A stretch of DNA of 32,000 bases. Source: an uncultured Sporolactobacillaceae bacterium. Lineage in GTDB: Bacteria; Bacillota; Bacilli; Bacillales; Sporolactobacillaceae. Position numbers and translations under genes: made by a program. The stretch covers positions 39,086 to 71,085 of the forward strand of contig CAVYYW010000027.1 of NCBI GenBank assembly GCA_963772845.1, read 5' to 3'. This document shows, one piece after another, positions 6,258-26,641 of the stretch (its first letter is position 1; every line of letters starts with the position of its first letter). The notes below the pieces were generated by a model. It was not told where the DNA came from. It saw nothing but the letters and a program-made list of their open reading frames with translations, and did no database searches.

Positions 6258-6417
6258 GCCTTGGTGCCGAGCTATGGAACATTTGCGCTTGCCGCGGGCA
6301 GGCGGTGAACCTCCTGATATGAAGGAAACTGTCATGCCCCCCACTTTAACTCTGTTTTTAGGCAATTCTAAGCAAAAAACCTTTCTTGCTTCTTATTTAA
6401 TCGAGTGTTGATTTTCG

Positions 6418-6785
6418 TCAAAAGGTGAGTTGAGGGAAACCGAGGCGATTAGTGCCCTCCAAGGGTCAAAAAGGTGAGTTGAGGGAACCAACCGAGGCGA
6501 TTAGTGCCCTCCAAGGGTCAAAAAGCTGAAATTGATGGAATCCAAAGAGGCGTTGGAGGACAAAAAAGCGGCCAAAACCGAAATAAGTGGAATCCAACGA
6601 GGCGTTGGAGGACAAAAAAGCGGCAAAATCCGAAAATAGTGGAATCCAAAGAGGAGTTGGAGGACAAAAAAGCGCCCAAAACTGAAAAAGTGGAATCCAA
6701 AGAGGCGTTGGAGGACAAAAAAACGCCCAAAAGCCGAAAAAGTGGAATCAACCGAGGTGTTTGATGCCTGCCAAGCGCCAAAAAG
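6418..6785. repeat. Tandem array of about 7 units with about 52 bp period (units of 44-52 bp)
   Basis: The core unit is AAAAAAGCGSCMAAAASYGAAAWAGTGGAATCCAAMGAGGCGTTGGAGGAC. Unit starts are 6418, 6466, 6518, 6562, 6614, 6666 and 6717. Each unit carries a small hairpin (TCCAA..TTGGA or GAGGG..CCCTC) and an A6-7 tract. Confidence 0.9.
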
Positions 6786-6856
6786 CTACTTAATATCATC
6801 GTTAATGGCTTTTGATCATTTTGTTGTTCGTAACATTTTTTTTGAAAAGATTAAAA

Positions 6857-6899
6857 AAACCGCCCTGTTTAGCTGTAAAAGAGCTAAATGGGGCGGTTT
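6857..6899 (-). terminator. Strong hairpin that reads as a Rho-independent terminator on the minus strand, with no gene immediately upstream
   Basis: AAACCGCCC..TTTAGCT..AGCTAAA..GGGCGGTTT forms 9+7 bp of stem. On the minus strand it is followed by T7 (plus-strand A-run 6853-6859). Confidence 0.7.
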
Positions 6900-6953
6900 C
6901 GCTTTTAGTTTCTCCAGCTTCTGCTCTTAAGAAAGCTTCTCTTTGAAAACTTT

Positions 6954-7061
6954 GGCTCCATCAGGGCTACCCCGGCAAGCTTCACTTTTCATTGTCTAGC
7001 TATGCCGCACAGCTCCTCGGGGTCACTTCGAAAGCCCTTCAAAAATGAAAGAGCCATTTTT
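6954..7061. repeat. 108-bp direct repeat, copy 1
   Basis: It is identical base-for-base by eye to 7649-7756. A diverged third copy is at 24492-24600. Confidence 0.9.
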
Positions 7062-7221
7062 CGCCCAAATTGTCTAGCTGCGGTTGCCATTCCTTCGGAT
7101 CCTTCAATTTCCCTTCAGAGGAAAAGAGCTCCTCTTTGGAAAACCTCCAGGCTCTTTCAGGACTAATCGGGCAACCTCGCTTTTCGCTACTCCAGTCTCT
7201 GGGAAAGAAATCTGCGACCAT

Positions 7222-7529
7222 GTGCTCCTGCGTCTGCTAGACATGCTTCGAAGCGGGATTCCTCGTCGCAATTCGCAGTCGTTCGAGAGGTGATGCTTGT
7301 GCTCCTGCGTCTGCTAGACATGCTTCGAAGCGGGATTCCTCGTCGCAATTCGCAGTCGTTCGAGAGGTGATGCTTGTGCTCCTGCGTCTGCTAGACATGC
7401 TTCGAAGCGGGATTCCTCGTCGCAATTCGCAGTCGTTCGAGAGGTGATGCTTGTGCTCCTGCGTCTGCTAGACATGCTTCGAAGCGGGATTCCTCGTCGC
7501 AACTCGTAGTCGTTCGAGATGTGATGCTC
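7222..7529. repeat. Tandem array of 4 x 77 bp
   Basis: Units 7222-7298, 7299-7375 and 7376-7452 are identical. Unit 7453-7529 differs at 4 positions and matches the single copies at 26522-26598 and 24640-24724 (the latter with indels). Confidence 0.95.
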
Positions 7530-7648
7530 GTGCCTGTCGGAGCTGACATGTGCGGCTCCGCTTTTCTTTGTCTAGTTCCGCTTGCCAGCCCTTCGGTTCC
7601 TTCAACTTTCTTCGGTGGACAAAAAGCGTCCCCCTCAGAAAGTCTCCA

Positions 7649-7756
7649 GGCTCCATCAGGGCTACCCCGGCAAGCTTCACTTTTCATTGTCTAGCTATGC
7701 CGCACAGCTCCTCGGGGTCACTTCGAAAGCCCTTCAAAAATGAAAGAGCCATTTTT
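7649..7756. repeat. 108-bp direct repeat, copy 2
   Basis: It is identical to 6954-7061, at an offset of 695 bp. Confidence 0.9.
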
Positions 7757-8299
7757 TTGGTCTTCCTCCAGTGCCTGTCGGAGCTGACATGTGCGGCTTC
7801 GCTTTTCTTCTAATCCAGTGTGACTGGTTTGGTTTTTCTTTGGGCGTTTTCTTCCTCTTAGTTCGAGAACGCCATGCTGAAAGGAGGCGCGGATCTCTTC
7901 AGAAGAAACCATATATGGAAGCGTAACCGTTCTTTCAGCCTGGTGAAAGCGGCGTTCTTTATGGAAGTAATGCTGCTGGTCATTTTCAACCGTATGTTCT
8001 TGGTGGTCGGTTACTGAAATATGGACTTTGTCTCCAAAAGCTTCAACCTGGATCCGATCTCGATCAACGCCGGGAAGCTCGGCCTGAATGACCCACTCTC
8101 TGGCCGTTTCGTACATATCAATAGGAATTGAACGATTAAAGGGATACGTTTTTTGGAAAAAATTGTCCATAGAATGAAGCAGCGAAGATTTGCCGTTTCC
8201 CTTAAAGAAGCCGTTCATCTGCTCCATAATATCGTGCCCAAGAGGGAAAAAAGTTTCTTTGTTATCCGATGGTTTTTCCTTGTTGTCAGCCATCGTCAT
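7718..8299 (-). CDS. Hsp20/alpha-crystallin family protein (CotM/CotP-like). The last ~31 codons of the annotated ORF read into a repeat module, and the true stop is possibly TAG at 7810-7812.
   Basis: An alpha-crystallin-like core is present (PIDMYETAREWVIQAELPGV...GVLELR). RBS AAGGAGG lies upstream of the ATG at 8299. The C-terminal tail 7718-7812 is encoded by the shared module GTGCCTGTCGGAGCTGACATGTGCGG. Confidence 0.8.
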   Translation of the reverse strand: MTMADNKEKPSDNKETFFPLGHDIMEQMNGFFKGNGKSSLLHSMDNFFQKTYPFNRSIPIDMYETAREWVIQAELPGVDRDRIQVEAFGDKVHISVTDHQEHTVENDQQHYFHKERRFHQAERTVTLPYMVSSEEIRASFQHGVLELRGRKRPKKNQTSHTGLEEKRSRTCQLRQALEEDQKNGSFIFEGLSK

Positions 8300-8430
8300 T
8301 CCTCCTTAATAGAAATAGTCATTTTTATCATATGAGAGAGAATGAAAATGGTCTGGGCGCTTTTCGGAAAAATTGGGAGGGAAAGTGTTTTCAGAGTTGG
8401 TGGCAATTATCCTTAAGACAACGACCTCAT

Positions 8431-8464
8431 AGAAAAAAGGCTGCCGAGATCGCTCGACAGCCTT
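8431..8464 (-). terminator. Rho-independent terminator of the yeeE-like gene
   Basis: On the minus strand, AAGGCTGTCGAG..CTCGGCAGCCTT is followed by T6. Confidence 0.8.
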
Positions 8465-8484
8465 GCATGCTTTATAGTGTAGAC

Positions 8485-9741
8485 TTAGCAAAAATCATCG
8501 GAGGATTTTGGCACTGACATGCCGAAGAGTGGACGCAAATACAAGGACACATAAGTGCCGAGTAGTCCAAAAATCATCCACACATAGCCATGAAGACTGA
8601 AAGAAGCAATGCCGCCAAAGTAGGCACCGATGTTACAGCCAAAGGCTATTCTTGAGCCATACCCCATCAGAATACCGCCGATAATCGCAGCCAAGAGGCG
8701 GCGCATCGGAATTTTTTTCAGAAGGAAGACGCCTCCAAGCGTTGATGCGGCAAACGCACCGATTATAACGCCAAAATCAAGATTGGTCGTGGTATCAACA
8801 AAAATTGATTGGTGCAGGGACTGAGCATTCGCTCCTGACCAATATCCCCAGGATGCGACGTTAATGCCTGCTGCACTTGCAACCTTTGATCCCCAAAGGG
8901 CAAAAGCAGATGTGATGCCCCATGGTGCGTTTCGAGTCATCAGCACAATGGCATTCAGCACAGCGAGAACAACAGCGGCTGTGAAAATTGGCCATGAGCC
9001 GCGCAGCACTCGTGCCCAGCCTGAAGTAGTAGGGACCATTGCTCTTTTAGGCGGGCGCTTTTTCTTTTCAACAGCAAGAGTGATCCAGGTGATGGCTCCA
9101 AATATGATCATTTGAAGCACCCAGCCGCCAAACCAGCCAAGTCCTGTGCTTTGTGCTAAAGAAATTGGCCCGAAGTGGGGCATATCCTGTGTCCAAAAGT
9201 TAAAATGCCAAGCGCCTAATACGGATCCGACAATAAAAGCGAGCAGGGTAATAAACATTTCTGATCTCCCGCCACCTACGGCATAAAGGGTACCTGATGC
9301 ACACCCGCCGCCAAGCTGCATGCCGATTCCGAACAGGAAGGAGCCAACAACAACGCTGGTCCCGACCGGTGACACATAGCCTTGAGGATGGCCGCCAAAG
9401 AAGCTAAAGCCTGTAGATAAAATGATGGCAAACAGCGTACTGGCAACGGCCAGCATCAGCATATGAGAACGAATTGCCTGACCATTCCCAACTGACATCA
9501 TCTGCCTGAATGCTGATGTAAAACCGAATCTCGCGTGAAACAGAGTAAAGCCGAGGGCTAAACCAAGCCAAAGCAGGAGTCCCTGTTTGAAACCGCCGAT
9601 GGAAATACTGACAATACTTAATATGATGCCGATAATTATTGCAATAACAACAAGGATTTTCTGTGGAGCTCCCAGTTTGTTAGAGTCTGCAGCAGAAGCT
9701 GATTTATGTTCAGATGCAGTGTTTGAAGAAGACATGTTCAT
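8485..9741 (-). CDS. YeeE/YedE family membrane protein (putative thiosulfate/sulfur-compound transporter)
   Basis: The protein is 418 aa and multi-pass, with the duplicated Cys-containing motifs GGGCASG and FGCNIG typical of YeeE/YedE. AAGGAGG lies upstream of the ATG at 9741. Confidence 0.85.
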   Translation of the reverse strand: MNMSSSNTASEHKSASAADSNKLGAPQKILVVIAIIIGIILSIVSISIGGFKQGLLLWLGLALGFTLFHARFGFTSAFRQMMSVGNGQAIRSHMLMLAVASTLFAIILSTGFSFFGGHPQGYVSPVGTSVVVGSFLFGIGMQLGGGCASGTLYAVGGGRSEMFITLLAFIVGSVLGAWHFNFWTQDMPHFGPISLAQSTGLGWFGGWVLQMIIFGAITWITLAVEKKKRPPKRAMVPTTSGWARVLRGSWPIFTAAVVLAVLNAIVLMTRNAPWGITSAFALWGSKVASAAGINVASWGYWSGANAQSLHQSIFVDTTTNLDFGVIIGAFAASTLGGVFLLKKIPMRRLLAAIIGGILMGYGSRIAFGCNIGAYFGGIASFSLHGYVWMIFGLLGTYVSLYLRPLFGMSVPKSSDDFC

Positions 9742-9836
9742 CTTTCATCCTCCTTATTCAGATAAGATTTGTTGGAATTAAACTCTTCTTATCCTACAAC
9801 AGGATGGATTAATTTTAAAACATTTTGCTTATGCCA

Positions 9837-10457
9837 TTAATAAGCGATGCCGACCCGTTTAAAATGGTAGCTTTCATCTGAAAGCTGGCGGTAAACAAAG
9901 TCTGCAGCATCGCAGACACTAATCTGCTCTCCATGCATGGGAAGATAGTTCGCCTCAACACGGTAACGGCCTTCTGGTTCACCATCCGGAAGGTAGGTAG
10001 GGCAAACCACCGTCCAGTCCAACTCACTGTTTTTAAGCAGTTCAAACGATTTTCGATGTTCTTCTGCTGCTCTTGTCAGCCTTCTTTTTGACTCATCTGT
10101 TTGAAAACGGTATTTCGTCTCATCCTGTCTGCTTGTCAAAATGCCGGCTGTCCCGACACTGATTATACGTGAAATGCCTTCGTGCCTCATTGAACGTATG
10201 ATATTCGGCATGGCCAGTGATAGCGTTTCCCCGCCATCCGTACTGAGTGCACTGATCACTGCATCGTGCCCAGGCATGACCTCATCAAGATCCGATTGGT
10301 TAAGGACATCCCCTTTAAAGAGGGTTAAAGAGCCGGATTCAATGGAAAGCTTATCAGGATTTCTTACAAAAGCAGTAACCTGATAGCCATCCTTAAGCGC
10401 CCGTCTGGTGATTTCGCTTCCCACACGGCCAGAAGCTCCAAGAATAAGCAGTTTCAT
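9837..10457 (-). CDS. NAD(P)H-binding protein (atypical SDR / flavin-reductase-like)
   Basis: The N-terminus is MKLLILGASGRVGSEI (Rossmann fold). The protein is 206 aa. Confidence 0.8.
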   Translation of the reverse strand: MKLLILGASGRVGSEITRRALKDGYQVTAFVRNPDKLSIESGSLTLFKGDVLNQSDLDEVMPGHDAVISALSTDGGETLSLAMPNIIRSMRHEGISRIISVGTAGILTSRQDETKYRFQTDESKRRLTRAAEEHRKSFELLKNSELDWTVVCPTYLPDGEPEGRYRVEANYLPMHGEQISVCDAADFVYRQLSDESYHFKRVGIAY

Positions 10458-10623
10458 AAATAGCCTCCTTACAACATCATGATTCTACAAGTGATCATTC
10501 AAGAATATCTTTAGTTTAACATCAAATTTTTTTAAGGGTAAAACCCATTTTTAGTTTTTAAAAATAAAAAATGGGGAATTAAGAACTATATCTCAGTAGT
10601 CAAATTGAGAAGGAGAGAAAAAC

Positions 10624-10974
10624 ATGGCTAAAACAGTAGCAAAAGTATTAGGTATTATTTTTATTATCTTAGGAATCGTTGGCTTTTTTATTCAATTCGA
10701 TAATTTTTTCTCGCTTACGGTAACACACGATATCGTGCATTTGGTATCAGGTATTATTCTTCTCGCTGCAAGCGGATCAGAAGCAACAGCAGCTCTCTGG
10801 TCAAAAATCGTCGGTATTATCTATGCGGTCGTTTTCATCATTGGGTTGTTCACAAACCACATTGCCGGCATCAACCTGCTTCCGGCTGATGATGTGCTTC
10901 ACTTAATTATTGTGGCAGTGCTTTTATATGCGGGCTTCCGTTCAGGAGCTTCTACCGCATCAAGAGCTGCGTAA
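10624..10974 (+). CDS. Small membrane protein, DUF4383-like
   Basis: The protein is 116 aa with 4 hydrophobic segments. RBS GAAGGAGAG lies upstream. Confidence 0.65.
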   Translation: MAKTVAKVLGIIFIILGIVGFFIQFDNFFSLTVTHDIVHLVSGIILLAASGSEATAALWSKIVGIIYAVVFIIGLFTNHIAGINLLPADDVLHLIIVAVLLYAGFRSGASTASRAA

Positions 10975-10989
10975 TTAAGCTTTACCGCA

Positions 10990-11047
10990 AAATAAAGACC
11001 GGATCTCTCCGCTGCTATGCAGTGAACTGAACCGGTCGTTTATTTTG
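10990..11047 (+). terminator. Probable terminator
   Basis: AAATAAAGACCGG pairs with CCGGTCGTTTATTT (one bulge) and is followed by T-rich sequence. The loop is long. Confidence 0.5.
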
Positions 11048-11090
11048 TTTAAAAAAGAAGATTGTTTTAATAGAACGAATATTTTATCTT

Positions 11091-11119
11091 TTGCTCCTTA
11101 AGGACAACCCATGTATAAT
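11091..11119 (+). promoter_or_regulatory. Sigma-A-type promoter for the L-box leader
   Basis: TTGCTC - 17 nt - TATAAT, with an extended TG (TGTATAAT). Confidence 0.65.
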
Positions 11120-11164: not shown

Positions 11165-11406
11165 AGATGGGGTAGAGGTCGCGGTTTTTAATAGTAGGGC
11201 GCTGAGACGATGGATGTCTTTGAAGCTGCCTGAAAGGATCAACCGCCGAAGTCTGGACAGGTATCCACACCTGACAGGCTGGGGCTGTTCCCAAACAGGG
11301 GCAGAACTGTCACATGGAGTATTTTTTCCATGTGTTGAGCTATCGATGGAAGGTCTGGATGGGGCTTTTTTCTGCCATCGTGTCGAGCATTCGCGATGGT
11401 TTTTTT
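11165..11406 (+). promoter_or_regulatory. Lysine riboswitch (L-box) with a terminator expression platform
   Basis: Conserved L-box blocks appear in order: AGAGGTCGCG, AGTAGGGC, GAGACGATGGAT, CTGAAAGG, CGCCGAAG, GCTGG, ACTGTCA. These are followed by a terminator stem CCATCGTG (11375-11382) / CGCGATGG (11392-11399) plus T7. An alternative pairing partner ATCGATGG sits at 11342-11349. Confidence 0.85.
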
Positions 11407-11452
11407 AATTCCCTTTTTACCTTCCATAAGTCGAATCGAAAGGAAGAGATTT

Positions 11453-12916
11453 ATGGATCAGCAGCAAAGAACAGACAGCAGTGCAGCAACAGGGACTTCT
11501 TTAAAAAGAGGGCTTAAATCACGGCATATGACGATGATCGCTTTAGGAGGCGCTATTGGCACAGGGTTATTCCTTGCAAGCGGCACCGCGATTCACTCAG
11601 CAGGACCAGGAGGCGCTTTGCTCGCCTATGGGATTATTGGCATCATGGTGTTTTTCTTAATGACAAGTCTTGGAGAACTGGCTTCTTATATGCCAACAAG
11701 CGGTTCGTTCAGTACGTACGCAACCCGGTTCATTGACCCGGCGTTAGGATTCGCTCTTGGCTGGAATTACTGGTACAACTGGGCCATCACGCTTGCAGCA
11801 GAGCTTTCTGCAGCAACGCTTGTGATGAAGTTTTGGTTCCCGCATACACCTTCTATATTATGGAGCGGAATATTTCTTCTGCTTATCTTTGGACTCAATG
11901 TATTATCTGTAAAAGGATACGGCGAGTCAGAATATTGGTTCGCTATAATTAAAGTCGCTACCGTCATCATTTTCATTATTGTTGGCTTGCTGATGCTTAT
12001 TGGCATCCTGCATGGCGAGACGAGAGGCTTCGGCAACTTTACCAGAGGCGATGCCCCTTTTCATGGCGGTCTTTTAGCGGCCTTTGGTGTTTTCCTGGCT
12101 GCGGGCTTTTCTTTTCAAGGAACAGAATTGCTAGGAGTCAGTGCCGGTGAAAGCGAGGACCCTGCTAAAAATGTTCCAAAAGCGGTACGCAGTATATTCT
12201 GGAGGATTCTATTATTCTATATTTTTGCCATTCTAATTATCGGATTAATTATTCCTTATACAAGCCCAAACCTTGCAAGCGATAATGTGCTGGTCAGCCC
12301 CTTCACTCTTGTTTTCAAGCATGCGGGTCTCGCCATTGCTGCTTCCGTGATGAACGCAGTCATTTTAACTGCCGTCTTATCCGCGGGCAATTCGGGATTA
12401 TACGCATCCACAAGAATGCTGTATGCTCTGGCGCGGGAAGGAAAGGCTCCGAAGTTTCTAGGGTTTGTTAATCAGCGCGGAATTCCAATCTATGCTTTGC
12501 TGATTACCACAGCAGTGGGGATGCTTGCGTTCTTAGCATCACTATTCGGGGATGGGGCCGTCTACATTTGGCTTCTAAATGCCTCAGGGATGTCCGGATT
12601 CATTGCATGGCTCGGGATTGCGGTCAGCCATTACCGCTTTAGAAAAGCTTATCTTCATCAGGGGCATGATCTGAAAAATCTTCCGTATCGTGCAAAATGG
12701 TTTCCGTTCGGACCGATTTTTGCTTTTCTGGTTTGTTTAGTTGTCGTTATTGGACAGAACTACCAGGCGTTTATGACAGGAGCGATCGACTGGAAAGGGA
12801 TTGTGGTTTCATATATTGGGCTCCCGCTGTTTTTAATCGTGTGGTTCAGTTATAAGTGGTCTAAAAAAACAAAACTGCTGTCCCTTGATCAATGTGATGT
12901 CACACCCCATGAATAA
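11453..12916 (+). CDS. lysP: Amino acid permease of the APC family, LysP-type lysine permease
   Basis: Strong similarity along the whole length to E. coli LysP as I recall it (LKSRHMTMIALGGAIGTGLF, SFQGTEL, NAVILTAVLSAGNSGLYASTRMLY, SHYRFR). The start at ATG 11453 follows AAGGAAG. It sits behind an L-box. Confidence 0.85.
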   Translation: MDQQQRTDSSAATGTSLKRGLKSRHMTMIALGGAIGTGLFLASGTAIHSAGPGGALLAYGIIGIMVFFLMTSLGELASYMPTSGSFSTYATRFIDPALGFALGWNYWYNWAITLAAELSAATLVMKFWFPHTPSILWSGIFLLLIFGLNVLSVKGYGESEYWFAIIKVATVIIFIIVGLLMLIGILHGETRGFGNFTRGDAPFHGGLLAAFGVFLAAGFSFQGTELLGVSAGESEDPAKNVPKAVRSIFWRILLFYIFAILIIGLIIPYTSPNLASDNVLVSPFTLVFKHAGLAIAASVMNAVILTAVLSAGNSGLYASTRMLYALAREGKAPKFLGFVNQRGIPIYALLITTAVGMLAFLASLFGDGAVYIWLLNASGMSGFIAWLGIAVSHYRFRKAYLHQGHDLKNLPYRAKWFPFGPIFAFLVCLVVVIGQNYQAFMTGAIDWKGIVVSYIGLPLFLIVWFSYKWSKKTKLLSLDQCDVTPHE

Positions 12917-13061: not shown

Positions 13062-14537
13062 GTGAGAGATGTGAAACCGGAAAAAGGAGCAACAGTAACA
13101 GATCCAAACGGATTGCAAAGGGGTCTGAAAGCACGGCATCTAACAATGATATCACTTGGAGGCGCAATCGGGACCGGTCTGTTTCTTGGGAGCGGCGCAG
13201 CCATTCATACGGCTGGTCCAGGCGGAGCGCTTACCGCATATATCATTATCGGCATCATGGTGTACTTCATTATGACGAGCTTGGGGGAGCTTGCTTCATT
13301 TATGCCTGTCAGCGGCTCCTTCAGTACGTATGCCACCCGTTTTATTGATCCGGCACTTGGCTTCGCATTAGGCTGGAATTATTGGTACAGCTGGGCAATT
13401 ACGCTTGCAGCTGAATTATCTGCATCAACGCTTGTCATGAAATTTTGGTTTCCTGACACACCCTCTCTTTTATGGAGCGGACTCTTTCTGCTAATCATAT
13501 TTCTTTTGAATTATTTATCCGTAAAAGGTTATGGAGAAGGGGAATACTGGTTTTCCTTTATCAAGGTAGCCACGATTATCATCTTTATTATCGTTGGTAT
13601 CTTAATGATTATCGGTGTGTTTAATGGAAAAGCGATAGGATTTCAGAATTTGACCGTTAAAAATGCTCCGTTTAGCGGAGGGTTTCTTGCTACTCTCAGT
13701 ATCTTCTTGGCTGCAGGCTTCTCTTTTCAAGGAACTGAAATTGTTGGGGTTGCCGCAGGAGAAAGTGAAAATCCAAGAAAAACGGTTCCAAAAGCAGTCC
13801 GAACCATCTTTTGGCGTATTCTGCTCTTTTATGTTCTCGCCATTCTTGTCATTGGCCTGATCATTCCTTACACAAACAGTTCACTGGAAAGCGACAGCAT
13901 ACTCGTGAGTCCGTTTACCTTGGTCTTTAAAAAGGCAGGTCTTGCATTTGCAGCCTCAGTCATGAACGCCGTTATCTTAACAGCGGTGCTGTCTGCCGGT
14001 AATTCAAGTCTCTATGCTTCAACCAGAATGCTCTATGCAATGGCGAAAGACGGCCAGGCTCCTAAATTTCTTGCAAAACTTAATAAACGCGGCATACCGA
14101 TCGGAGCACTCCTTATAACAACATTTGTAGGAATGTTAGCCTTCCTGGCTTCCATCTTCGGCGACGGTGCGATTTATATCTGGTTATTAAATGCTTCAGG
14201 AGTCACAGGGTTTATTTTCTGGCTCGGTATTGCAATGAGCCATTATCGGTTCAGAAAAGCCTTCGTCGCTCAAGGGCGTTCGCTGGATGAACTGCCATAC
14301 AAAGCAAAATGGTATCCGTTCGGACCGATTTTCGCGATCGTGGTTTGTCTTATAGTCATCCTTGCACAGGATTATCAAGCCTTTTTAAACAGCCATATCG
14401 ACTGGATGAGTCTTGCTGTCGCTTATTTAGGCATTCCGCTGTTCCTTGTTATGTGGCTTGGTTATAAATTTATTAAAAAGACAAAAGTCGTTCCGCTTCA
14501 AGAATGTGAACTTGATGCTGAAGAATATAACGACTGA
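13062..14537 (+). CDS. Amino acid permease, LysP-type paralog
   Basis: It is roughly three-quarters identical by eye to 11453-12916. GTG at 13071 has better spacing to GAGGAG than GTG at 13062. Confidence 0.85.
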   Translation: MRDVKPEKGATVTDPNGLQRGLKARHLTMISLGGAIGTGLFLGSGAAIHTAGPGGALTAYIIIGIMVYFIMTSLGELASFMPVSGSFSTYATRFIDPALGFALGWNYWYSWAITLAAELSASTLVMKFWFPDTPSLLWSGLFLLIIFLLNYLSVKGYGEGEYWFSFIKVATIIIFIIVGILMIIGVFNGKAIGFQNLTVKNAPFSGGFLATLSIFLAAGFSFQGTEIVGVAAGESENPRKTVPKAVRTIFWRILLFYVLAILVIGLIIPYTNSSLESDSILVSPFTLVFKKAGLAFAASVMNAVILTAVLSAGNSSLYASTRMLYAMAKDGQAPKFLAKLNKRGIPIGALLITTFVGMLAFLASIFGDGAIYIWLLNASGVTGFIFWLGIAMSHYRFRKAFVAQGRSLDELPYKAKWYPFGPIFAIVVCLIVILAQDYQAFLNSHIDWMSLAVAYLGIPLFLVMWLGYKFIKKTKVVPLQECELDAEEYND

Positions 14538-15592: not shown

Positions 15593-15700
15593 GCTCTATA
15601 AAATTTTAAGTAGTCCCTGCGGGGTGTTCTTGGAACGCTGATGAGGCCACTGAAAGAGACCACCTTTTTTGATGTGTTTGTTGATTTCCGCTCTAGACTG

Positions 15701-15952
15701 CTCGCTTTCCACGGGCACGGCCTCAGCTAACTTTGGCGTGGGCTCTTTGTGCCAAAGTGGATCTTCGAGCGCGTGCTGCTTCCGTAGGACTTGAAACAGC
15801 CTCCTTGAATCCACACCGCACGAAGAAAATGCGTTTGCTTTAGATTGAAAGCTGAAATACCCTCGCTTTCCACGGGCACGGCCTCAGCTAACTTTGGCGT
15901 GGTCTCCTTGTTTGCCAAAGTGGATCTTCGGACGCGTGCTGTTTCCGTAGGA
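15701..15952. repeat. Two direct copies (161-bp period) of a ~90-nt imperfectly palindromic module
   Basis: Copies are at 15701-15789 and 15862-15952 (CTCGCTTTCCACGGGCACGGCCTCAGCTAACTTTGGC..GCCAAAGTGGATCTTCG..CGTGCTG.TTCCGTAGGA). An inverted copy is at 26242-26332. The central hairpin is CTTTGGC/GCCAAAG. Confidence 0.9.
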
Positions 15953-16225
15953 GTCTCGGGTATTTCTAGCTTTCAATCTGCATGCGCATTTCGAGGAGTC
16001 ATGGATATTTCTGGCTTTCAATTGTAGGCATGCATATTTTCGAGGAGTTTCGGGTATTTCTGGCTTTCTCTAGGCATGCGCATTTTCGAGGAGTCTCGGG
16101 TATTTGCTTTCAAAGCATGCAATTTTCGAGCGCATTGCTGCATTTTCGAGGAGTCTCGGGTATTTCTAGCTTTCAACTCAGGGCATGCGTATTTTCGAGG
16201 AGTCTCGCGTCTTCCGCTTCAATCA
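15951..16225. repeat. Tandem array of 6 units with 45-60 bp period
   Basis: The unit is GAGTCTCGGGTATTTCTAGCTTTCAA..GCATGC..ATTTTCGAG. Unit starts are 15951, 15996, 16045, 16091, 16151 and 16200. Confidence 0.9.
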
Positions 16226-16498
16226 ACGTCATGTGATGTCCTTTAGAAGTCAATTATTGCTACGCATGCCTTCAGGATGTGAATAGGTTCGCCGGTGGCA
16301 CAGGACGTGACAAATTTAGCCAAACTTTCTACATAATTTTGCGCTGCCTTTAGAATTCCAGGGGACTTTGCGTTATTCTTTGATTAAATCTTAAAAAAGA
16401 TCAATAATATAGAAGTTTTTCAGTTGCCTCAGTCTGATCCCGCAGATGTCTCACCCTTCAGATAAATTGGCCCAAAAATGCAATAATCAGCCCGAAGA

Positions 16499-16547
16499 AC
16501 AAAAAAGCGTGCCACACAATTCTCTTTTGAGAATGTGTCGGCACGCT
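16499..16547 (-). terminator. Strong hairpin that reads as a minus-strand Rho-independent terminator inside island B
   Basis: AGCGTGCC.ACACA.TTCTC / GAGAATGTGT.GGCACGCT forms a ~18-bp imperfect stem. On the minus strand it is followed by T6 (plus-strand A-run 16501-16506). Confidence 0.7.
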
Positions 16548-16732
16548 GCTTTAAAAAGACTTTTTTTGGCATCTCGCTGATTGCGCTGAAATTGAAATAA
16601 CACCTTTTGGAACCACACCGACAGAACGCTGTATTGGCAAAGGCAGTCAAAAAGAGAGTGAAATGTCCTTAATGAGAGGGAGGAAGACGTTCGTCGGGGC
16701 AAATGCGCATCCCTATTGATGAAAGCTAAAAA

Positions 16733-16884
16733 CTCGAAACTCCTTGAAAAAGCACATGCTCACTGAAAGGCAGGAATACCTGAGACTTCTCGAAAATGCT
16801 TTGTGCTCCATTATAAAAATGGAAATACTTGAGACTCCTCGAAATTGCCCGTGCTTATTGAAAGCAAGAAATACCCGAGACTCC
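16733..16884. repeat. Three units of the 15951-16225 array in inverted orientation
   Basis: Units 16733-16789, 16790-16838 and 16839-16884 end in GAAATACCCGAGACTCC, the reverse complement of GGAGTCTCGGGTATTTC. Confidence 0.85.
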
Positions 16885-17100
16885 TGCAAGAATCAGCGTT
16901 CCAAGCGAGACCCCACAGCCACAATGTCTTATGTGAGGAGGCTCGCGGAACGCCTGCGGAAAGCGAGGGTATTTCCGCTTTCAATTATGACATCGCATTT
17001 TCTTCGTGCGAAATCACAAAAATCGGAATTTTCTAGTGTCAGTTTCGCTATTTTAGTTGTTTACAAGTATTTATTAAGCGTTATTCGGCCATTTTTTTGC

Positions 17101-22281: not shown

Positions 22282-22322
22282 TGTTGAATTTGTCACAGTC
22301 TGATGAACAAGCTGTTCTTCCG

Positions 22323-22352
22323 TTGACCCGCTCTTCCCGAAAGACATATAAT
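22323..22352 (+). promoter_or_regulatory. Sigma-A-type promoter
   Basis: TTGACC - 18 nt - TATAAT. Confidence 0.5.
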
Positions 22353-22394
22353 AAAGCTTGAAAAGAAATGTGCGTTTTGAATAGGATGATAAAA

Positions 22395-22814
22395 ATGACA
22401 AAAGAAAAAAACATGACAGCGGCCGGTATGGGAGAACAGATTCTTACCCCTTGTTCAAATAAGCCGAACTGTGTATCCAGTGAACATAAAAATCTTAACC
22501 GCAAAATGCTTCCTGTTTCATATGAAGGAATGACCCTGGAGCAGGCAAAAAGCTGTCTTCTGGAAGTGCTGCACAGCATGCCGAGAATTGATATTAAGCA
22601 GGACAATCATCATTTTATGCAAGTGGAGTACCGGACTCAGGTATTTGAATTTTTCCATGATGCAGAGTTCTATTTTAATGAAAAAAGCAAAAAGCTTCAG
22701 TTTCGATCTTCTACCCGAATCGGATTTGCTGATTTTGGATCAAATAAACGTTGGTTGCAGTCAGTTATTGCCCGCTTTTTACAAAAAGCTGCAGTCTATC
22801 ATTCTTCACTATAG
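22395..22814 (+). CDS. DUF1499-like protein
   Basis: TPCSNKPNCVSSEH motif is present. The start was chosen at ATG 22395 after AGGATG; the ORF track starts at 22368. Confidence 0.6.
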   Translation: MTKEKNMTAAGMGEQILTPCSNKPNCVSSEHKNLNRKMLPVSYEGMTLEQAKSCLLEVLHSMPRIDIKQDNHHFMQVEYRTQVFEFFHDAEFYFNEKSKKLQFRSSTRIGFADFGSNKRWLQSVIARFLQKAAVYHSSL

Positions 22815-22872
22815 GGTACGCTCCTGAACACCGATTGTAAGACACTTCCATATTAAAAAAGGAGTGATGACT

Positions 22873-23703
22873 GTGAGAGTAGGTTACCTTGGTCCAAAAG
22901 GTACGTTCAGCGAAGAAGCTGCCGTCCGTTACTTTGAAGACCAGAATGTTGAAATGGTGGCGTTTCAGACGATTTCGGATGTTTTTGAAGATGTAGAGGC
23001 CGGAAACGTGGACAGCGCAGTCGTTCCGATTGAGAACACCATTGAAGGTACCATTAACATAACCGTGGACAGCCTGGCTGACAGCCCTGAATTATTTATA
23101 CAGGGAGAAATGATCTTAGGAATATCGCAGCAATTGCTCGGTGTAAAGGGCGTACTTCTGGATGAAATTCAAGAAATATGGTCAATTCCTCCAGCCTTGG
23201 CACAATGCCGGAAATTTATTAGAAAGAGTCAGGCTGAGACAAAGCATTTTGACAGTACCGCTTCAGCAGCTTTAAAGGTGAAGGAATCGGGAAGACGAGA
23301 CGTGGGTGCCGTCGCTTCGGCATGGGCTGCAGAACAGCTTGGATTGGAAGTCATCGCAAGGAATGTGCAGGACACATCAGCGAACCATACCCGCTTTGTG
23401 GTGATAGCGAATGAACGCACAATGGCGGAGGATTCTCAAAAAACAATGCTTTTAATCACCCCTGGTGACGAGCATTCCGGCCTCCTTGCAGACATTCTTC
23501 AGGTGTTTTCAACATTGGATTTAAACCTCTCTTGGATCGAATCCCGGCCAACCAAAACAAAGCTTGGCACGTATCAATTTTATCTTGTTGCAGAAGCCGG
23601 AATGCAGGATGAACGCATGTCAAAAGTCCTGGCGATTCTTGATATTTATGGACATCGCACGAGAGTTCTTGGCACCTACAAAAGTAAATTACATGTAACC
23701 TGA
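22873..23703 (+). CDS. pheA: Prephenate dehydratase
   Basis: The N-terminus is (M)RVGYLGPKGTFSEEA. The TRF motif (NHTRFVVI) and ESRP motif (IESRPTK) with a C-terminal ACT domain are present. GTG 22873 lies 8 nt after AAAGGAG; the ORF track starts at 22864. Confidence 0.9.
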   Translation: MRVGYLGPKGTFSEEAAVRYFEDQNVEMVAFQTISDVFEDVEAGNVDSAVVPIENTIEGTINITVDSLADSPELFIQGEMILGISQQLLGVKGVLLDEIQEIWSIPPALAQCRKFIRKSQAETKHFDSTASAALKVKESGRRDVGAVASAWAAEQLGLEVIARNVQDTSANHTRFVVIANERTMAEDSQKTMLLITPGDEHSGLLADILQVFSTLDLNLSWIESRPTKTKLGTYQFYLVAEAGMQDERMSKVLAILDIYGHRTRVLGTYKSKLHVT

Positions 23704-23744
23704 CAGCTCAGACAATAATACGATTTTTAAAGGACGGGGAAACA

Positions 23745-24122
23745 ATGGGTAAACTATTTGTAATCATTGGAGCAGCCTGTGCACTGTTATCCGTAGCCTT
23801 CGGTGCTTTCGGGGCACACGGCTTAAAAAATAAGCTATCCGCACATTATATGGAAATTTTTCAAACTGGCGTTCATTACCAAATGATGCATGCATTAGGA
23901 CTGATTCTTGTAGGCATTTTGGCAGCAACATGGCTGAATAATGGTTCGGCGCTTCTCAACTGGGCAGGCTGGCTGATGTTTTTCGGCATTATTCTTTTCT
24001 CAGGAAGTTTATACATATTAAGCTTGACGCAGGTTTCTGTACTTGGCGCGATTACACCGATCGGCGGTGTTGCATTTCTCGTCAGCTGGCTCTTAATTAT
24101 CATTGCATTTGTTCGTGCCTGA
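23745..24122 (+). CDS. DUF423 membrane protein (YwdK-like)
   Basis: The protein is 125 aa with 4 TM segments and the motif GAFGAHGL. It is adjacent to gerQ, as in B. subtilis. Confidence 0.8.
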   Translation: MGKLFVIIGAACALLSVAFGAFGAHGLKNKLSAHYMEIFQTGVHYQMMHALGLILVGILAATWLNNGSALLNWAGWLMFFGIILFSGSLYILSLTQVSVLGAITPIGGVAFLVSWLLIIIAFVRA

Positions 24123-24147
24123 CCCTTTAGGGGCCAGGCATTTTTTC
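24117..24147 (+). terminator. Rho-independent terminator
   Basis: GCCTG.CCC..GGG..CAGGC followed by T6. Confidence 0.75.
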
Positions 24148-24187
24148 TTATCAGAAAAGGGGCGAGGAGATCGGAACGATTTTAGTG

Positions 24188-24219
24188 CAAAAATAAAAAG
24201 CCGCATTTTCATGGGCTTT
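24188..24219 (-). terminator. Candidate minus-strand terminator 542 nt beyond the gerQ stop
   Basis: AAAGCC (24197-24202) pairs with GGCTTT (24214-24219). On the minus strand it is followed by TTTTTATTTT. Confidence 0.5.
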
Positions 24220-24763
24220 ATTGGATGGTCATGCTATTTAATTTATCTGAGGAGGGAAAGGAATTCTCTCTGAAAACCCTACCGGCTATTTCATGGTTAT
24301 TCAGGCAAGCACCAGATTGAGCTATTCTTGGATTAAATCTTAAAAAAGGCAAATAAATACAGAAGTTTTTCAGTGATGTGTAGGAGCTAACAAGTGCGGC
24401 TCTTTTCTTTGTCTAGTTACGCTTGCCAGCCCTTCGGTTCCTTCAACTTTCTTTACAGAGAACAAAAAGCGTTCTCTTCAGAAAGTCTCCAGGCTCCTTC
24501 AGGGCTATTCAGGCAAGCTTCACTTTTCTTTGTCTAGTTCCGCCGCACAGCTCCTCGGGGTCACTTCGAAAGCCCTTCAAAAATGAAAAAGCCATTTTTT
24601 GGTCTTCCTCCATTTTCCGGGAAAGAAATCTGGAACCATGTGCTCCTGCCAGTCTGCTAGTCATGCTTCGAAGCGATTGGATTCCTCGTCGCAACTCAAG
24701 TAGTACGTTCGAGAAGTGATGCTCGTGCCTGTCGGAGCTGATATGTGCGGCTTCACTTTTCTA
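24220..24763. repeat. Repeat island C, with the same module order and orientation as the right part of island A and the end of island D
   Basis: It holds the 108-bp block homolog (24492-24600), the 77-nt unit homolog (24640-24724), and the terminal module (24725-24763) ending on the gerQ stop codon. Confidence 0.9.
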
Positions 24764-25420
24764 GGCATATGGGTAGGAGTAATTAATCGGGCCTTTGAAG
24801 GTGATATAGTCTACATAAATAAGCGGGATTAGGTAGCGTGTTCCTTGAGGGCCGCCGTCGTTAATAATCACGTGATCGCGTCCAGCTGCTTCAACTTCTC
24901 CCTTAAACACTTTAGCGTTCCATTCAGAGTTGTTTTCAAATGTACAGTAAACAGTGGCGACTTTTTCAAGATTGAGTCTTAAAATGTTCTCTATATAAGA
25001 TTGCTGGTTGGCAGGCAGTGGTAAAGATCCAGGAGGTGGCATCATTTGACCGCCTTGCCCTTGCATTGGCTGACCTGGCTGTTGCATCATTTGGCCGCCT
25101 TGCATTTGCATTGGCTGACCTGGCTGCTGCATCATTTGACCGCCTTGCATTTGCCCACCAGGCATCATTGGGTAGCCACCCATCATTTGCTGAGGTTGCA
25201 TTCCTTGACCTTGTTGCCGAAAATCCGGATAACCGCCAAAATCTTGAGGCATATATGGTATGCCGCCTTGCATTCCTCCCATTTGTGGATCCATTCCGTA
25301 CTGTGACATCGGATACTGATAGCCATCTGACGGTGAACCTTGGGAAGTCCCTCCTTGCTGGGACTGCTGCCGCTCTTCGGATTGCCACCCATCCTGTGGA
25401 TTTTGTCTTTGCTCACTCAT
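24761..25420 (-). CDS. gerQ: Spore coat protein GerQ (YwdL)
   Basis: The C-terminal domain SYIENILRLN..KVATVYCTFENNSEWNAKVFKGEVEAAGRDHVIIND matches B. subtilis GerQ as I recall it. The N-terminus is Q/G/M/P-rich. It neighbours the ywdK-like gene. Confidence 0.85.
   Translation of the reverse strand: MSEQRQNPQDGWQSEERQQSQQGGTSQGSPSDGYQYPMSQYGMDPQMGGMQGGIPYMPQDFGGYPDFRQQGQGMQPQQMMGGYPMMPGGQMQGGQMMQQPGQPMQMQGGQMMQQPGQPMQGQGGQMMPPPGSLPLPANQQSYIENILRLNLEKVATVYCTFENNSEWNAKVFKGEVEAAGRDHVIINDGGPQGTRYLIPLIYVDYITFKGPINYSYPYA
25040..25160. repeat. In-frame 45-bp tandem repeat inside gerQ (about 2.7 units)
   Basis: It encodes GGQMMQQPGQPMQ(M/G)Q repeats. Units are 25040-25084 and 25085-25129, then a partial unit. 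Confidence 0.85.
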
Positions 25421-25659
25421 GGAAATTCACTCCAATCCAATTGATAATGTCGACTTCCCGACTCTCAGATCATGTATATGTTTCAAGCCAGGCTTTTAAT
25501 ACAAAAAACACTTTGAAAGTCTGCCGATTAACGATGACAGGGCCTTCAAAGCGATGATTATAAAGTATTAATTATTAAGATACCGATTGTCGAGTTTGTT
25601 TTAACATCGGAGGATCCTGCTGAAAAAGTTTCTTTTTCGCTTCGAGCCGAGCATTAGAA

Positions 25660-26641
25660 AGTTATCACTTGCCGTGGGGCGGAACGAGAGCCATGCTTTA
25701 ATTAAATGCGGCGCTGCAGGGTGGCATTTGGAGCCCAGCAAGAGCCGAAAACCTGAATTGAGGGCATTATAAGTTGCCGTTGGAGCCCATTGTGCCTCTG
25801 TAACTCGAAAGGATGGCCGTAAAGGAAGCGTTTAGGACCGTCTGAGACATGAAAACTCGAATAAATGGCCGTAAAGGTAGCGTTTAGGACCAACCAAGAT
25901 TCCCATTACCAACTAAATGCCGAACTGCCGGGAATGTTCGAGATTCCTCGAAAATGCTTTTTGTTTCATTACAAAAAAGAAATACCCAAGGTTCTCTTGA
26001 CCTCAAGGTATTTCCACTTTCTCATAGATTGCTTTGCCATTTTCATCGTGCGATGTGGTTCCAAAGACGTTATTCAAGTCCTGCGGAATCAGCGATCCAA
26101 GCGAGACCCCGCAGCGCAAACGTTGCCTTAAAGCGCGAGGAGGCTCGCGGATCGCCCGCGGAAAGCGAGGGTATTTCCGCTTTCAATGGATGGAAACCGC
26201 ATTTTCTTCGTGCGGTGTGAATTCAAGGATGCTGTTTCAAGTCCTACGGAACCAGCACGCGTCCGAAGATCCACTTTGGCGTACAAAGAGACCATGCCAA
26301 AGTTAGCTGAGGGCGTGCCCGTGGAAAGCGAGCAGCCTAGAGCGGCAATCAACAACCACGACGACACCGGGGGACTTTTTCAGCCGACTTTGTCGGAGCT
26401 CCACGTGCGGCTCCGCTTTTCTTTGTCTAGTTACGCTTGCCAGCCCTTCGGTTCCTTCAGAGCTAATCAGGCAAGCTCGCTTTTCGCGACTCCAGTGCTT
26501 GGGAAAGAAGTCTGTAACCATGTGCTCCTGCGTCTGCTAGTCATGCTTCGAAGCGGGATTCCTCGTCGCAACTCGTAGTCGTTCGAGATGTGATGCTCGT
26601 GCCTGTCGGAGCTGACATGTGCGACTTCGCTTTTCTTGCTA
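25660..26641. repeat. Repeat island D, which joins both module families
   Basis: 25660-25905 is a degenerate ~52-nt periodic stretch. 25940-26390 carries island-B-type modules (inverted relative to the left part of B). 26391-26641 carries island-A/C-type modules and ends on the hemQ stop codon. Confidence 0.85.
25973..26014 (-). terminator. Candidate minus-strand terminator 625 nt beyond the hemQ stop
   Basis: GAAATACC (25979-25986) pairs with GGTATTTC (26007-26014). On the minus strand it is followed by T6 (plus-strand A-run 25973-25978). The arms themselves resemble repeat-family sequence. Confidence 0.5.

Follow-up and report, generated by a model that had tools for sequence, protein, structure and literature searches.

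Intergenic islands built from two families of repeated modules in a Scopulibacillus-like Sporolactobacillaceae genome

Results and discussion

Four islands contain two families of repeated modules

The window analysed here, a stretch of 32,000 nucleotides from an uncultured bacterium, contains four intergenic islands, A to D, with a summed length of 4582 nt. This is 14.3% of the window, close to the 14% estimated in the initial annotation. Repeats internal to the window cover ~3.15 kb (10% of the window) within the ~4.6 kb of island, far beyond chance, and loci that are unrelated and as much as 17 kb from one another carry the same module set. Convergent genes flank three of the four islands. 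Each module family listed in the initial annotation lies where it had been placed, exactly or to within a few bases, and the islands are indeed modular. They do not draw on one shared module set, as had been proposed, but on two families with different distributions: A/C-type modules occur in islands A, C and D, and B-type modules in islands B and D. The two types are physically joined in island D, as had been noted, and only there. The host is not a Bacillus but belongs to the Sporolactobacillaceae and is Scopulibacillus-like.

At 44-50%, the GC content of the island modules slightly exceeds that found elsewhere in the window (44.6%). CTAG occurs at 4.2 per kb in the islands versus 0.66 per kb outside. 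Despite this 6.4 times enrichment, we regard the earlier view that module boundaries fall on CTAG as an interpretation, since the TTGTCTAG sites fall within one continuous conserved motif of 21 nt.

A/C-type modules keep one order and one orientation

The A/C-type family comprises modules T, L, M and X and tandem units of 77 and 52 nt, on the + strand throughout, and the recurring order T'-L-M-X-(77 nt)n-T is likewise always on the + strand. Module T, an 8-bp hairpin followed by a T-tract, scored as a terminator-like site on the + strand. The + strand carries all four copies with at most two mismatches, which start at 7530, 7771, 24725 and 26599 (0.00 expected by chance), and two degenerate copies (T') start at 24379 and 26391. 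The junction motif CTTTTCWTTGTCTAGYTNYGC occurs six times, on the + strand only (expected 0), which places all 10 of the T and junction motifs on this strand. Module L is a 105-nt hairpin with a T-rich tail. A block of 108/139 nt recurs at 6924-7062, 7619-7757 and 24462-24600 with 83-91% identity. The 77-nt unit is present in four copies at ~7222-7529 and again at 24640-24724 and 26522-26598; three of the first four are identical, which shows recent tandem amplification.

Island A contains a 52-nt unit of two subtypes, repeated ~6.75 times in tandem (6438-6789, purine-rich + strand), and a unique, terminator-like strong hairpin of 18 pairs followed by a T-tract (6857-6910, +). The first block copy consists of the right half of L and module M (6924-7062, +, 83% identity). 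Then come a variant L hairpin of ~105 nt with compensatory pairs and the linker X, CTCCAG...ACCAT (7066-7221, +), the four 77-nt units (7222-7529, +) and module T (7530-7575, +), in which the terminator-like hairpin CGGAGCTGACATGTGCGGCTCCG precedes CTTTTCTTTG and TTGTCTAG. Hairpin L, again with compensatory pairs, and M form the second block copy (7576-7756, +), and a terminal T lies at 7771-7812 (+). The L-X part, the 77-nt units and the second block copy are all intra-window repeats. The hsp20 ORF (7718-8299, - strand) reads its last ~31 codons from the terminal T back to 7718.

The left part of island C (24257-24373, +) joins part of L's right half to a 57-nt module common to island B (16368-16424 and 24317-24373, +), an intra-window repeat with a weak sigma-A-like TTGATT-17-AATAAT. 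Its core (24379-24763, +) is the canonical set T'-L-M-X, one 85-nt unit and T, and the gerQ stop codon (24761-24763, - strand) overlaps the final bases of this T. Island D carries 52-nt-period units related to those of island A on its left (25717-25891, +). On its right lies an A/C-type set of T', an internally deleted L, X, one 77-nt unit and T (26391-26641, +); the hemQ stop codon (26639-26641, - strand) and the end of this set are 2 nt apart. All three T ends lie at a stop codon or within a few bases of one.

Folding of the A/C-type modules

The L fold has 37 pairs, with 93.6% paired and 7 compensatory pairs among the three copies compared; this level was matched by 2 of 500 shuffles, and slid controls reached at most 2. 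The hairpins have been kept by compensatory changes, and the covariation on which the initial annotation had made a structured-RNA role depend is present. For module T and the 77-nt array the + strand gives the better fold, by 28 kcal/mol when they are taken together, whereas for L and M it is the - strand.

The compensatory changes and strand-asymmetric folding could alternatively reflect a selected RNA function. The islands would then be independent + strand ncRNA genes, small or long, ended by T, or cis-acting 3'UTR modules that stabilise or regulate the mRNAs of hsp20, gerQ and hemQ on the - strand. Consistent with this, a canonical hairpin and T-tract stand at the 3' end of each A/C-type set, and upstream of the core of island C is the weak promoter-like module that this island shares with island B. 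The sole A/C-type relative found, an 82-nt tandem unit of Scopulibacillus cellulosilyticus that is 73% identical to the 77-nt unit, is also placed between a stop codon and a terminator, and its array folds at z -3.1 on the sense strand versus -0.4 on the opposite strand. Conversely, promoter-like sites are not clearly above shuffle expectation, the strand preferences of L and M conflict with those of T and the 77-nt unit, and a single 77-nt unit with T folds no better than shuffles (z -0.6). Unit numbers that vary from 1 to 4 and truncated or internally deleted copies would be atypical of a functional RNA, and close relatives lack islands B, C and D (see below). No Rfam family matches the islands, and the match to a known repeat or ncRNA family that the initial annotation had allowed for was not found. 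We consider a functional RNA unlikely, though with an appreciable residual chance.

Exact-match scans, which are insensitive to divergence, gave no A/C-type match in 185,579 representative genomes or in the JGI metagenomes, collections that do not include the source genome. The A/C-type may be a family restricted to the Scopulibacillus-like lineage of the window. The islands might also have a purely local origin by segmental duplication, gene conversion and replication slippage, without any mobile element family. All A/C-type copies lie within 20 kb in a single orientation, the tandem arrays with identical units show active slippage, and the empty scans fit as well, although their insensitivity and the missing source genome weaken this last point. 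Against a local origin, three unrelated gene ends carry A/C-type sets whose junctions beside stop codons are sharp, the diverged relative in S. cellulosilyticus occupies a different locus, and the B-type modules have demonstrably spread over several genera and contexts. We therefore find a purely local origin quite improbable, and infer mobility of the A/C-type from three loci only.

The B-type element is widespread in Bacillales

The B element is a discrete hairpin of ~129 nt with short inverted ends (GTTGATT...AATCAAC), which are identical over 7 nt in the consensus and longer in the window variant. Of the cells in its alignment 98% are paired, and 4 of the pairs are compensatory. It is carried by 107 metagenome stretches and by plasmids of four genera (Peribacillus, Priestia, Paenibacillus and Bacillus); none of the plasmid matches is to a B. 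cereus-group plasmid. Copies are 124-130 nt long and lie in 44 different flank contexts, and similarity around the core stops at -77 and +52 (median). By a crude count of ORF context, 13 metagenome copies lie in a convergent, 20 in a tandem and 3 in a divergent setting. Many copies have extra flanking modules in common, and the element is often one module of larger mosaics. The possibility raised earlier that the modules are unique to these four loci is thus false for the B-type.

In the window, the B-type is represented by two complete copies (nhmmer E 1e-20 to 5e-21), diverged 'palindromic' variants and tandemly amplified end fragments. Two tandem variants and a right-end fragment (15672-15716) occupy 15650-15976 of island B (-; nhmmer 15976-15854, E 1.5e-5, and 15716-15672). 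They are followed by about six tandem units of 46-50 nt (TTTTCGAGGAGTCTCGGGTATTTCTAGCTTTCAA on the + strand), which are repeated B left ends (15949-16236, -); positions 16191-16227 are 92-95% identical to Bacillales plasmids. Three left-end units inverted relative to this array lie at 16760-16900 (+). The full-length element of ~128 nt (16858-16985, +, E 1.2e-20) has the lineage-specific inverted ends ATTGAAAGC.GAAATACCC ... GGGTATTTCCGCTTTCAAT and a compensatory G-C to C-G change.

In island D, a module common to island B (16773-16824) precedes a B element (25931-26190, +; nhmmer 26070-26177, E 5e-21), and 'palindromic' variants inverted relative to island B follow with a right-end fragment at 26317-26355 (26154-26383, +). 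The ~90-nt module at 15701-15789 and 15862-15952 has an inverted copy here (26242-26332) that is 93% complementary, and the 51-nt motif at 16935-16985 is 96% identical to 26137-26187. An inverted fragment of this motif, assigned earlier to 6285-6316 of island A, survives as a weak resemblance (~72% by eye) and is absent from the nhmmer report.

The islands are non-coding

Neither the 52-nt nor the 77-nt period is divisible by three, and six-frame translations gave no real protein family. We conclude that the islands are non-coding, in agreement with the initial annotation. The translations of island C and the B core had no protein match at E <= 0.01, a test that has little power when matches are short. 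As also stated there, the window shows no mobility gene: no mobility domain or transposase was found among its ORFs scanned against Pfam or NCBIfam. The peptides PAESE and LERKST, ascribed earlier to spurious hypothetical proteins of other Bacillaceae, are genuine and come from translation of the B-type element (CCCGCGGAAAGCGAG and CTGGAGCGGAAATCAACA, respectively). An ORF spanning island D is matched by six ORF clusters of other genomes, one of them named 'hypothetical protein'.

Several reading frames of 80-130 aa are open across the islands, and three broken-looking genes elsewhere in the window point to imperfect sequence quality or genome integrity. Both would fit pseudogene debris left by the decay of coding sequence, or an artefact in which the assembly collapsed repeats or joined them into chimeras. 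However, the sole protein matches are short unnamed ORFs, themselves translated from the same repeat, and the two periods break any reading frame. Misassembly would not yield copies that differ by 3-17% and are joined with precision to intact gene ends and retained terminators. Decay or artefact is very improbable.

Relatives lack islands B, C and D

We compared the sites of islands B, C and D, three of the four, in syntenic relatives. All three sites are compact there, at 42-350 nt, and relatives with 79-94% HemQ identity have none of these islands. The hemQ stop codon and the terminator T-tract are 65 nt apart in relative L006 (94% HemQ identity) versus 1128 nt in the window, and the L006 gerQ promoter beyond this terminator is 92% identical to that of the window. 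The gap between gerQ and DUF423 is 42-88 nt in L007, L009 and L120 versus 640 nt in the window; in L119 the two calls are ~85 nt apart, and a small called ORF overlaps both. Where the window has the 1649-nt space that holds island B, L119 and L120 have 134-265 nt. Retained terminator hairpins mark the far edges of two insertions in the window: for island C the hairpin common to DUF423 and gerQ (24120-24150, +), and for island D that of hemQ (25506-25556, -), now ~1.1 kb downstream of the stop codon. The original stop-to-terminator gaps were only ~20-50 nt. The compact sites indicate that the islands are lineage-specific insertions between stop codon and terminator.

Interpretation

The islands are probably lineage-specific pile-ups of non-coding small interspersed repeats in tolerant stop-to-terminator space. 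Modules may have spread in trans through a transposase encoded elsewhere, or through recombination between copies, and the islands would have grown by nested insertion and slippage. Their effects would be by-products rather than a selected function: 3'UTRs longer by 0.6-1.1 kb, extra hairpins, the 31-codon hsp20 tail, and + strand terminator-like caps that would face convergent genes. Against such pile-ups, no target-site duplication is definable for either family, no cognate transposase was identified, and the T ends sit closer to stop codons than simple tolerance predicts, although the gaps were short to begin with (~20-50 nt).

BOX, RUP and SPRITE (PMC3049150), as well as BIMEs and NIMEs (PMC3184786), have been reported to cluster and nest, to be enriched between convergent genes and to modify gene ends. 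On our best reading, the islands are a new member of such composite small interspersed repeats (BOX/SPRITE, BIME or NIME type), a fresh case of well-known bacterial "junk" repeats and not a novel kind of system. Like the islands, BOX elements of Streptococcus pneumoniae and S. suis (PMC3049150) are composite, non-coding and intergenic with distinct modules, form extended stem-loops, cluster or nest with other repeats, can change gene ends and are over-represented between convergent genes. The variable tandem number of boxB resembles that of the 77-nt unit, at 1 to 4 copies. No sequence relationship to BOX is shown, and BOX has boxA/boxC ends, inverted ends and target duplications, whereas A/C-type sets have direct T/T' ends and no definable duplication. 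The higher-order T-L-M... periodicity is also more satellite-like.

SPRITE resembles T and L in its hairpin followed by a T-rich tract near the 3' ends of mostly convergent genes. However, SPRITE is an AT-rich (28% GC) single unit of ~105 nt, while the more GC-rich island modules stand in larger composite sets, and L, unlike this likeness suggests, folds better on the strand without the T-tract. BIMEs (E. coli REP/PU) and NIMEs (Neisseria) are likewise intergenic mosaics of a few reordered and reoriented motifs, often behind genes, and their hairpins may protect upstream mRNA (PMC3184786, PMC3049150). In contrast to the islands, REP units are 20-40 nt long and tied to RAYT transposases, of which the window has no gene, and NIME units are bounded by 20-bp dRS3 repeats, which were not seen in the islands.

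For the B element, the closest parallels are MITEs (RUP, Correia, bcr1). Bcr elements are reported from the B. cereus group only, which has no B element among the plasmid matches. The B element further departs from MITEs in that it shows no consistent target-site duplication, its inverted ends agree over just 7 nt of the consensus, and many copies share flanking modules. It resembles them in being small, non-coding, inverted at its ends and folded into one long hairpin, and in its dispersal over at least 44 contexts and several genera. Elsewhere it sometimes adjoins IS1182-family transposase genes or remnants, a circumstantial clue to its transposase.

Islands A to D combine two repeat families

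The window holds four non-coding repeat stretches, islands A (6258-7812), B (15600-17100), C (24220-24763) and D (25660-26641), which the initial annotation described as built from one shared module set. Self-comparison of the window recovered all of the module families listed there; the inverted fragment proposed at 6285-6316 showed weak resemblance at most. Instead of one set, we found two families with different distributions that are joined in island D. The B type, a ~129-nt hairpin element and its derivatives, occurs in islands B and D. The A/C type, consisting of modules T, L, M and X and of 77-nt and 52-nt units, occurs in islands A, C and D.

Modules differ in order, number and orientation across the intergenic islands, as in mosaic repeats. 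The 77-nt unit is present in one to four copies per site, with four tandem copies at 7221-7528 and one each in islands C and D. A 139-nt block starts at 6924, 7619 and 24462, a 51-nt motif at 16935 and 26137, and a ~90-nt module has two copies in island B and an inverted one in island D, B-type modules being found in both orientations. Pattern searches with shuffled controls located four good copies of the terminal hairpin module T (38-nt pattern, 4 versus 0.00 expected) and six of a 21-nt junction motif (0.00 expected). Repeats covered ~3.15 kb of the 4.58 kb island span in an independent BLAST self-comparison. Tandem amplification within the islands was recent.

The tetranucleotide CTAG has a 6.4-fold higher density in the islands than in the rest of the window. 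The difference arises from that remainder, where CTAG is strongly avoided (18 seen versus ~103 expected from base composition); the islands contain it at about the predicted frequency (20 seen versus 18 expected).

The islands are inserted behind genes

No entry identical to the HemQ of the window was present among 5.8 billion proteins. Its best matches, at 94% and 89%, came from Logan assemblies, followed at 80% by Scopulibacillus darangshiensis and S. cellulosilyticus and further down by Camelliibacillus, Pullulanibacillus, Terrilactibacillus and Tuberibacillus. This ranking places the host as an unsampled Scopulibacillus relative within the Sporolactobacillaceae, not in Bacillus proper. Contigs with HemQ relatives were syntenic with the window. 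The prephenate dehydratase of the window gave only 33-36% matches in a genome-collection scan for syntenic relatives.

The sites of islands B, C and D, all three covered by the syntenic comparison, are empty in the compared contigs L006, L007, L009, L011, L119, L120 and L122, and these islands are thus polymorphic for presence and absence. The hemQ-to-gerQ gap, which holds island D, measures 113-238 nt in relatives and 1218 nt in the window, and the convergent gap with island B grows from 134-265 nt to 1649 nt. Between gerQ and DUF423, where island C lies, the distance is 42-88 nt in L007, L009 and L120 against 640 nt in the window. L119 is less clean here, since the two genes are ~85 nt apart and a small called ORF overlaps both.

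In L006, the closest relative, 65 nt separate the hemQ stop codon from the terminator T-tract; in the window this distance is 1128 nt. The gerQ promoter region past the island D site is still 92% identical between the two. The terminators have been kept at the far island edges (hemQ, 25506-25556; DUF423/gerQ, 24120-24150), which indicates that the extra DNA was wedged between stop codon and terminator. At the closest empty site, the spacer is too diverged for calling target-site duplications.

Convergent genes flank three of the four islands. In each of the three A/C-type islands, T directly adjoins a coding sequence: in island C it overlaps the stop codon of gerQ, and in island D its end is 2 nt away from that of hemQ. 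In island A, the reading frame of hsp20 (-) continues for ~31 codons within the repeat (7718-7812; ...LEEKRSRTCQLRQALEEDQKNGSFIFEGLSK). The repeat has apparently taken the place of the original stop codon and given the protein a C-terminal tail.

The A/C-type modules are ordered, structured and restricted in distribution

All A/C-type modules are on the + strand, arranged repeatedly as T'-L-M-X-(77-nt unit)n-T, where T' is a degenerate T. This order is complete in island C (24379-24763); L is internally deleted in island D, and island A carries two partial sets. T consists of an 8-bp hairpin followed by CTTTTCTTTG and was called terminator-like on the + strand at 7538, 7779, 24734 and 26394. 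A single-copy 18-pair hairpin with a T-tract is found mid-island A at 6857-6910 (+); it is unusually strong and has no upstream gene needing such a terminator.

L is a ~105-nt imperfect hairpin in which 93.6% of cells pair across three copies. The initial annotation had raised a structured-RNA role for the hairpins, and compensatory changes are present in both L (7 of 37 pairs changed on both sides) and the B element (4 pairs). The value for L was reached by 2 of 500 shuffles, and slid controls gave at most 2. The hairpins have been maintained. The heads of L and M are homologous, after TTGTCTAG, which makes the modules diverged paralogues of a simpler unit and the islands hierarchical and satellite-like. 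Folding favours the + strand for T and the 77-nt array and the - strand for L and M.

Outside the window, the only relative found was an 82-nt tandem unit of S. cellulosilyticus (2.5 copies, 73% identity to the 77-nt unit). The DUF1499 stop codon and a canonical terminator bracket this array, which is structured on the sense strand only. The 77-nt-unit pattern had no match in JGI metagenomes, and BLAST of island A against plasmids gave none. An exact T 20-mer was absent from 185,579 representative genomes, which excludes only the source species and near-identical copies.

At the gathering threshold, a lysine riboswitch outside the islands was the sole Rfam match in the window (11165-11350, +, 101.8 bits); it lies upstream of two tandem amino-acid permease genes. 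The repeated modules had no match in E-value mode either, and the Rfam scan that the initial annotation had suggested thus assigns them to no family. A Bacillaceae-1-like site in the non-repeated centre of island B (16269-16335, -) scored 34.2 bits against a gathering threshold of 35; its two conserved RUCCU loops are kept and its second stem is broken. The terminator cap T, the compensatory changes and the strand-asymmetric folding would all fit a functional RNA. We consider this unlikely, given that no Rfam family matches, the strand preferences of the modules conflict, copies are variable and truncated, and the islands are absent from relatives.

The B-type element is widespread

Parts of islands B and D matched plasmids of Peribacillus, Priestia, Paenibacillus and Bacillus subtilis by BLAST. 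A 33-nt core pattern was found in 107 stretches of JGI metagenomes and in none of the viral contigs. Similarity between the metagenome copies ends at a median of 77 nt before and 52 nt after the core start, giving an element of 124-130 nt across 44 distinct flank contexts. Like a MITE, the B element (GTTGATTGGAACGGAAGGTACGAGACTCCTGCGGGAAAAGCGAGTCCAAGGGAGACCCCGCAGGCGCAAGAGCGCCGAGGAGGCTCCCGGACCGCCCGCGGAAAGCGAGTGCCTGGAGTGGAAATCAAC) is small and non-coding, has many copies in varied contexts and carries terminal inverted repeats, its consensus ending in GTTGATT...AATCAAC. The window copy at 16858-16985 has inverted ends of roughly 18-20 nt (ATTGAAAGC.GAAATACCC). The element folds into a single long hairpin with 98% of cells paired, and its compensatory pairs include a G-C to C-G swap specific to both window copies.

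A profile of the metagenome copies detected near-complete elements at 16864-16975 and 26070-26177 (E about 1e-20), a diverged copy at 15854-15976, previously listed as a palindromic module, and several further end fragments. Left ends of the element, repeated in tandem, also make up the 46-50-nt units of island B. The repeats are dispersed at unrelated loci, and for the B type the possibility that the modules are unique to the four islands is false. Purely local duplication, by which the repeats would have multiplied in place, could account for the A/C type but fits neither the B type nor the S. cellulosilyticus relative of the 77-nt unit; overall we regard it as improbable.

One frame of the B element encodes both PAESE and LERKST, the peptides that the initial annotation linked to spurious hypothetical proteins of other Bacillaceae. 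An ORF across island D matched six short ORF clusters from other genomes, one of them named 'hypothetical protein', which are themselves translated tandem B-type modules. The repeat-derived ORFs P0121 and P0122 had no exact protein match. Six-frame chimeric translations of island C and the B core retrieved nothing from 5.8 billion proteins with at most 8000 candidates, a result that is not evidence of absence: the B core exists elsewhere and was still unmatched, short matches having huge E-values. With protein matches that are themselves translated repeats, coding debris is an unlikely source of the islands, as is misassembly.

No consistent target-site duplication was seen in 44 flank pairs of the B element. 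The flanks of many copies fall into few shared classes, which suggests nesting within larger repeats. An IS1182-family transposase gene or its fragments adjoin the element at ~16 of the 107 metagenome loci and on Peribacillus plasmid pA; this proximity hints at the mobilising enzyme but falls short of proof. Examples are L001 (31-1620) and the metagenome loci L079, L098, L060 and L087, with the element beside an IS1182-family transposase gene or short N- or C-terminal remnants of one. A hairpin in the flank, CTGTAGACAAACTC...GAGTTTGTCTACAG, is likewise common to many B copies, and the element may thus belong, as a single module, to a larger IS-related mosaic. The contig of relative L119 (79% HemQ identity) starts inside a B-type terminus (1-29), 90% identical to window 16956-16984, indicating that a lineage-specific B variant is present in related genomes and breaks their assemblies.

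Comparison with known repeat families

Composite small interspersed repeats with such behaviour include BOX, RUP and SPRITE of pneumococci and BIME and NIME of Gram-negatives (PMC3049150, PMC3184786). SPRITE combines a stem-loop with a U-rich tract near gene 3' ends, notably convergent ones, and T has both features. Conversely, SPRITE is AT-rich relative to its host, whereas the islands have 44-50% GC against 44.6% in the rest of the window. REP sequences are imperfect palindromes of 20-40 nt accompanied by a RAYT (TnpA_REP) gene. The initial annotation's view that the modules are not ordinary REP agrees with their size of 40-130 nt and with the lack of a Y1-transposase domain in any window ORF scanned. 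As an indirect comparison with the bcr1-bcr18 repeats of the B. cereus group, BLAST of the islands against 72,556 plasmids matched no record from that group.

Elements of the PATE type, derived from IS200/IS605, have subterminal hairpins, lack inverted ends and duplications, and insert strand-specifically beside a fixed tetranucleotide. At three loci the A/C type shows no more than a resemblance to them: its 10 T and junction motifs all share a strand, and CTAG is found repeatedly at junctions. Genes for TnpA and TnpB are absent from the window. T lies tightly against stop codons and the junctions are rich in CTAG, the one feature that could raise the repeats above the ordinary; it could mean site-specific insertion, a hypothesis based on three loci with original gaps of only 20-50 nt. 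An unlinked transposase would then mobilise the A/C element, and repeated insertion into self-created CTAG would pile modules up into islands. If so, such insertion would create new 3'UTRs and a new hsp20 C-terminal tail and protect from convergent transcription. That the A/C sets are an undescribed mobile non-coding element, site-specific at or beside stop codons with a CTAG/YTAR-like target that the genome otherwise strongly avoids, bringing its own T cap and rewiring gene 3' ends, has a low probability in our estimate.

CRISPR-like arrays do not fit, as there are no spacers, and neither do integron attC sites and group II intron remnants, for which Rfam gave no match. Pseudogene debris does not fit either. 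A candidate promoter in the module common to islands B and C was rejected, since shuffled sequence often equalled its score of 9/12. For either family, no description was found in Rfam 15 or the searchable literature, which is absence of evidence only; searches covering Bacillaceae MITEs, IS1182-derived MITEs and Scopulibacillus genomes likewise turned up none.

Most likely origin and consequences

The islands are most likely pile-ups of two composite small interspersed repeat families, because the modules are small, non-coding, hairpin-forming and variable in order and copy number, the two families nest, orthologous sites of close relatives are empty, and the islands lie behind mostly convergent genes. 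They add a new member to a well-known class; a new kind of system is not indicated. The modules would have been mobilised in trans, and the islands may have grown through nested insertion and slippage. Effects on adjacent genes would be by-products: longer 3'UTRs, extra hairpins, + strand terminator caps facing convergent genes and the hsp20 tail.

The stop-codon-to-terminator gap can grow fast, from about 50-65 nt to 0.6-1.1 kb at only 6% HemQ divergence. For gerQ, hemQ and hsp20, which are sporulation, heme and stress genes, the islands may also affect termination and the stability of the mRNA. In annotation, the repeats give spurious ORFs, six clusters of which are already in public protein sets, and distort real gene ends such as that of hsp20 with its 31-codon tail. 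They also cause assembly breaks, as in the relative's contig ending in a B-type terminus. Annotators could mask such repeats if given models for the ~129-nt Bacillales element and for modules T, L and the 77-nt unit. The catalogue of small interspersed repeats is extended to the poorly sampled Sporolactobacillaceae.

Gene setting

The window genes are ordinary housekeeping genes. In line with the initial annotation, which reported no mobility gene, none of the window ORFs scanned has a transposase, integrase or RAYT domain. The permease paralogues (11396-12916 and 13062-14537) share ~73% DNA identity, and Scopulibacillus relatives have this pair too. Each of three genes seems to be split into two ORFs: an aldo/keto reductase (3467-3874 and 3948-4322), pta (27535-28221 and 28205-28507) and an unknown ~520-aa gene (18668-18183 and 17998-17195, -) that is intact in L119 and L120 (519-529 aa). 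These are either sequencing frameshifts or pseudogenes; if the breaks are real, gene decay and repeat expansion may coincide in this lineage.

Inside gerQ (-), three copies of a 45-nt in-frame tandem repeat (25029-25163), unlike the island modules, encode the Q/M/G/P-rich N-terminal region of GerQ. Relatives contain other intergenic tandem repeats (L009, 91-440 and 573-789; L120, 16146-16839; L122, 503-695) with periods of 83, 121, 155 and about 21-63 nt that are unrelated to the islands. Intergenic minisatellites seem common in this Bacillales group.
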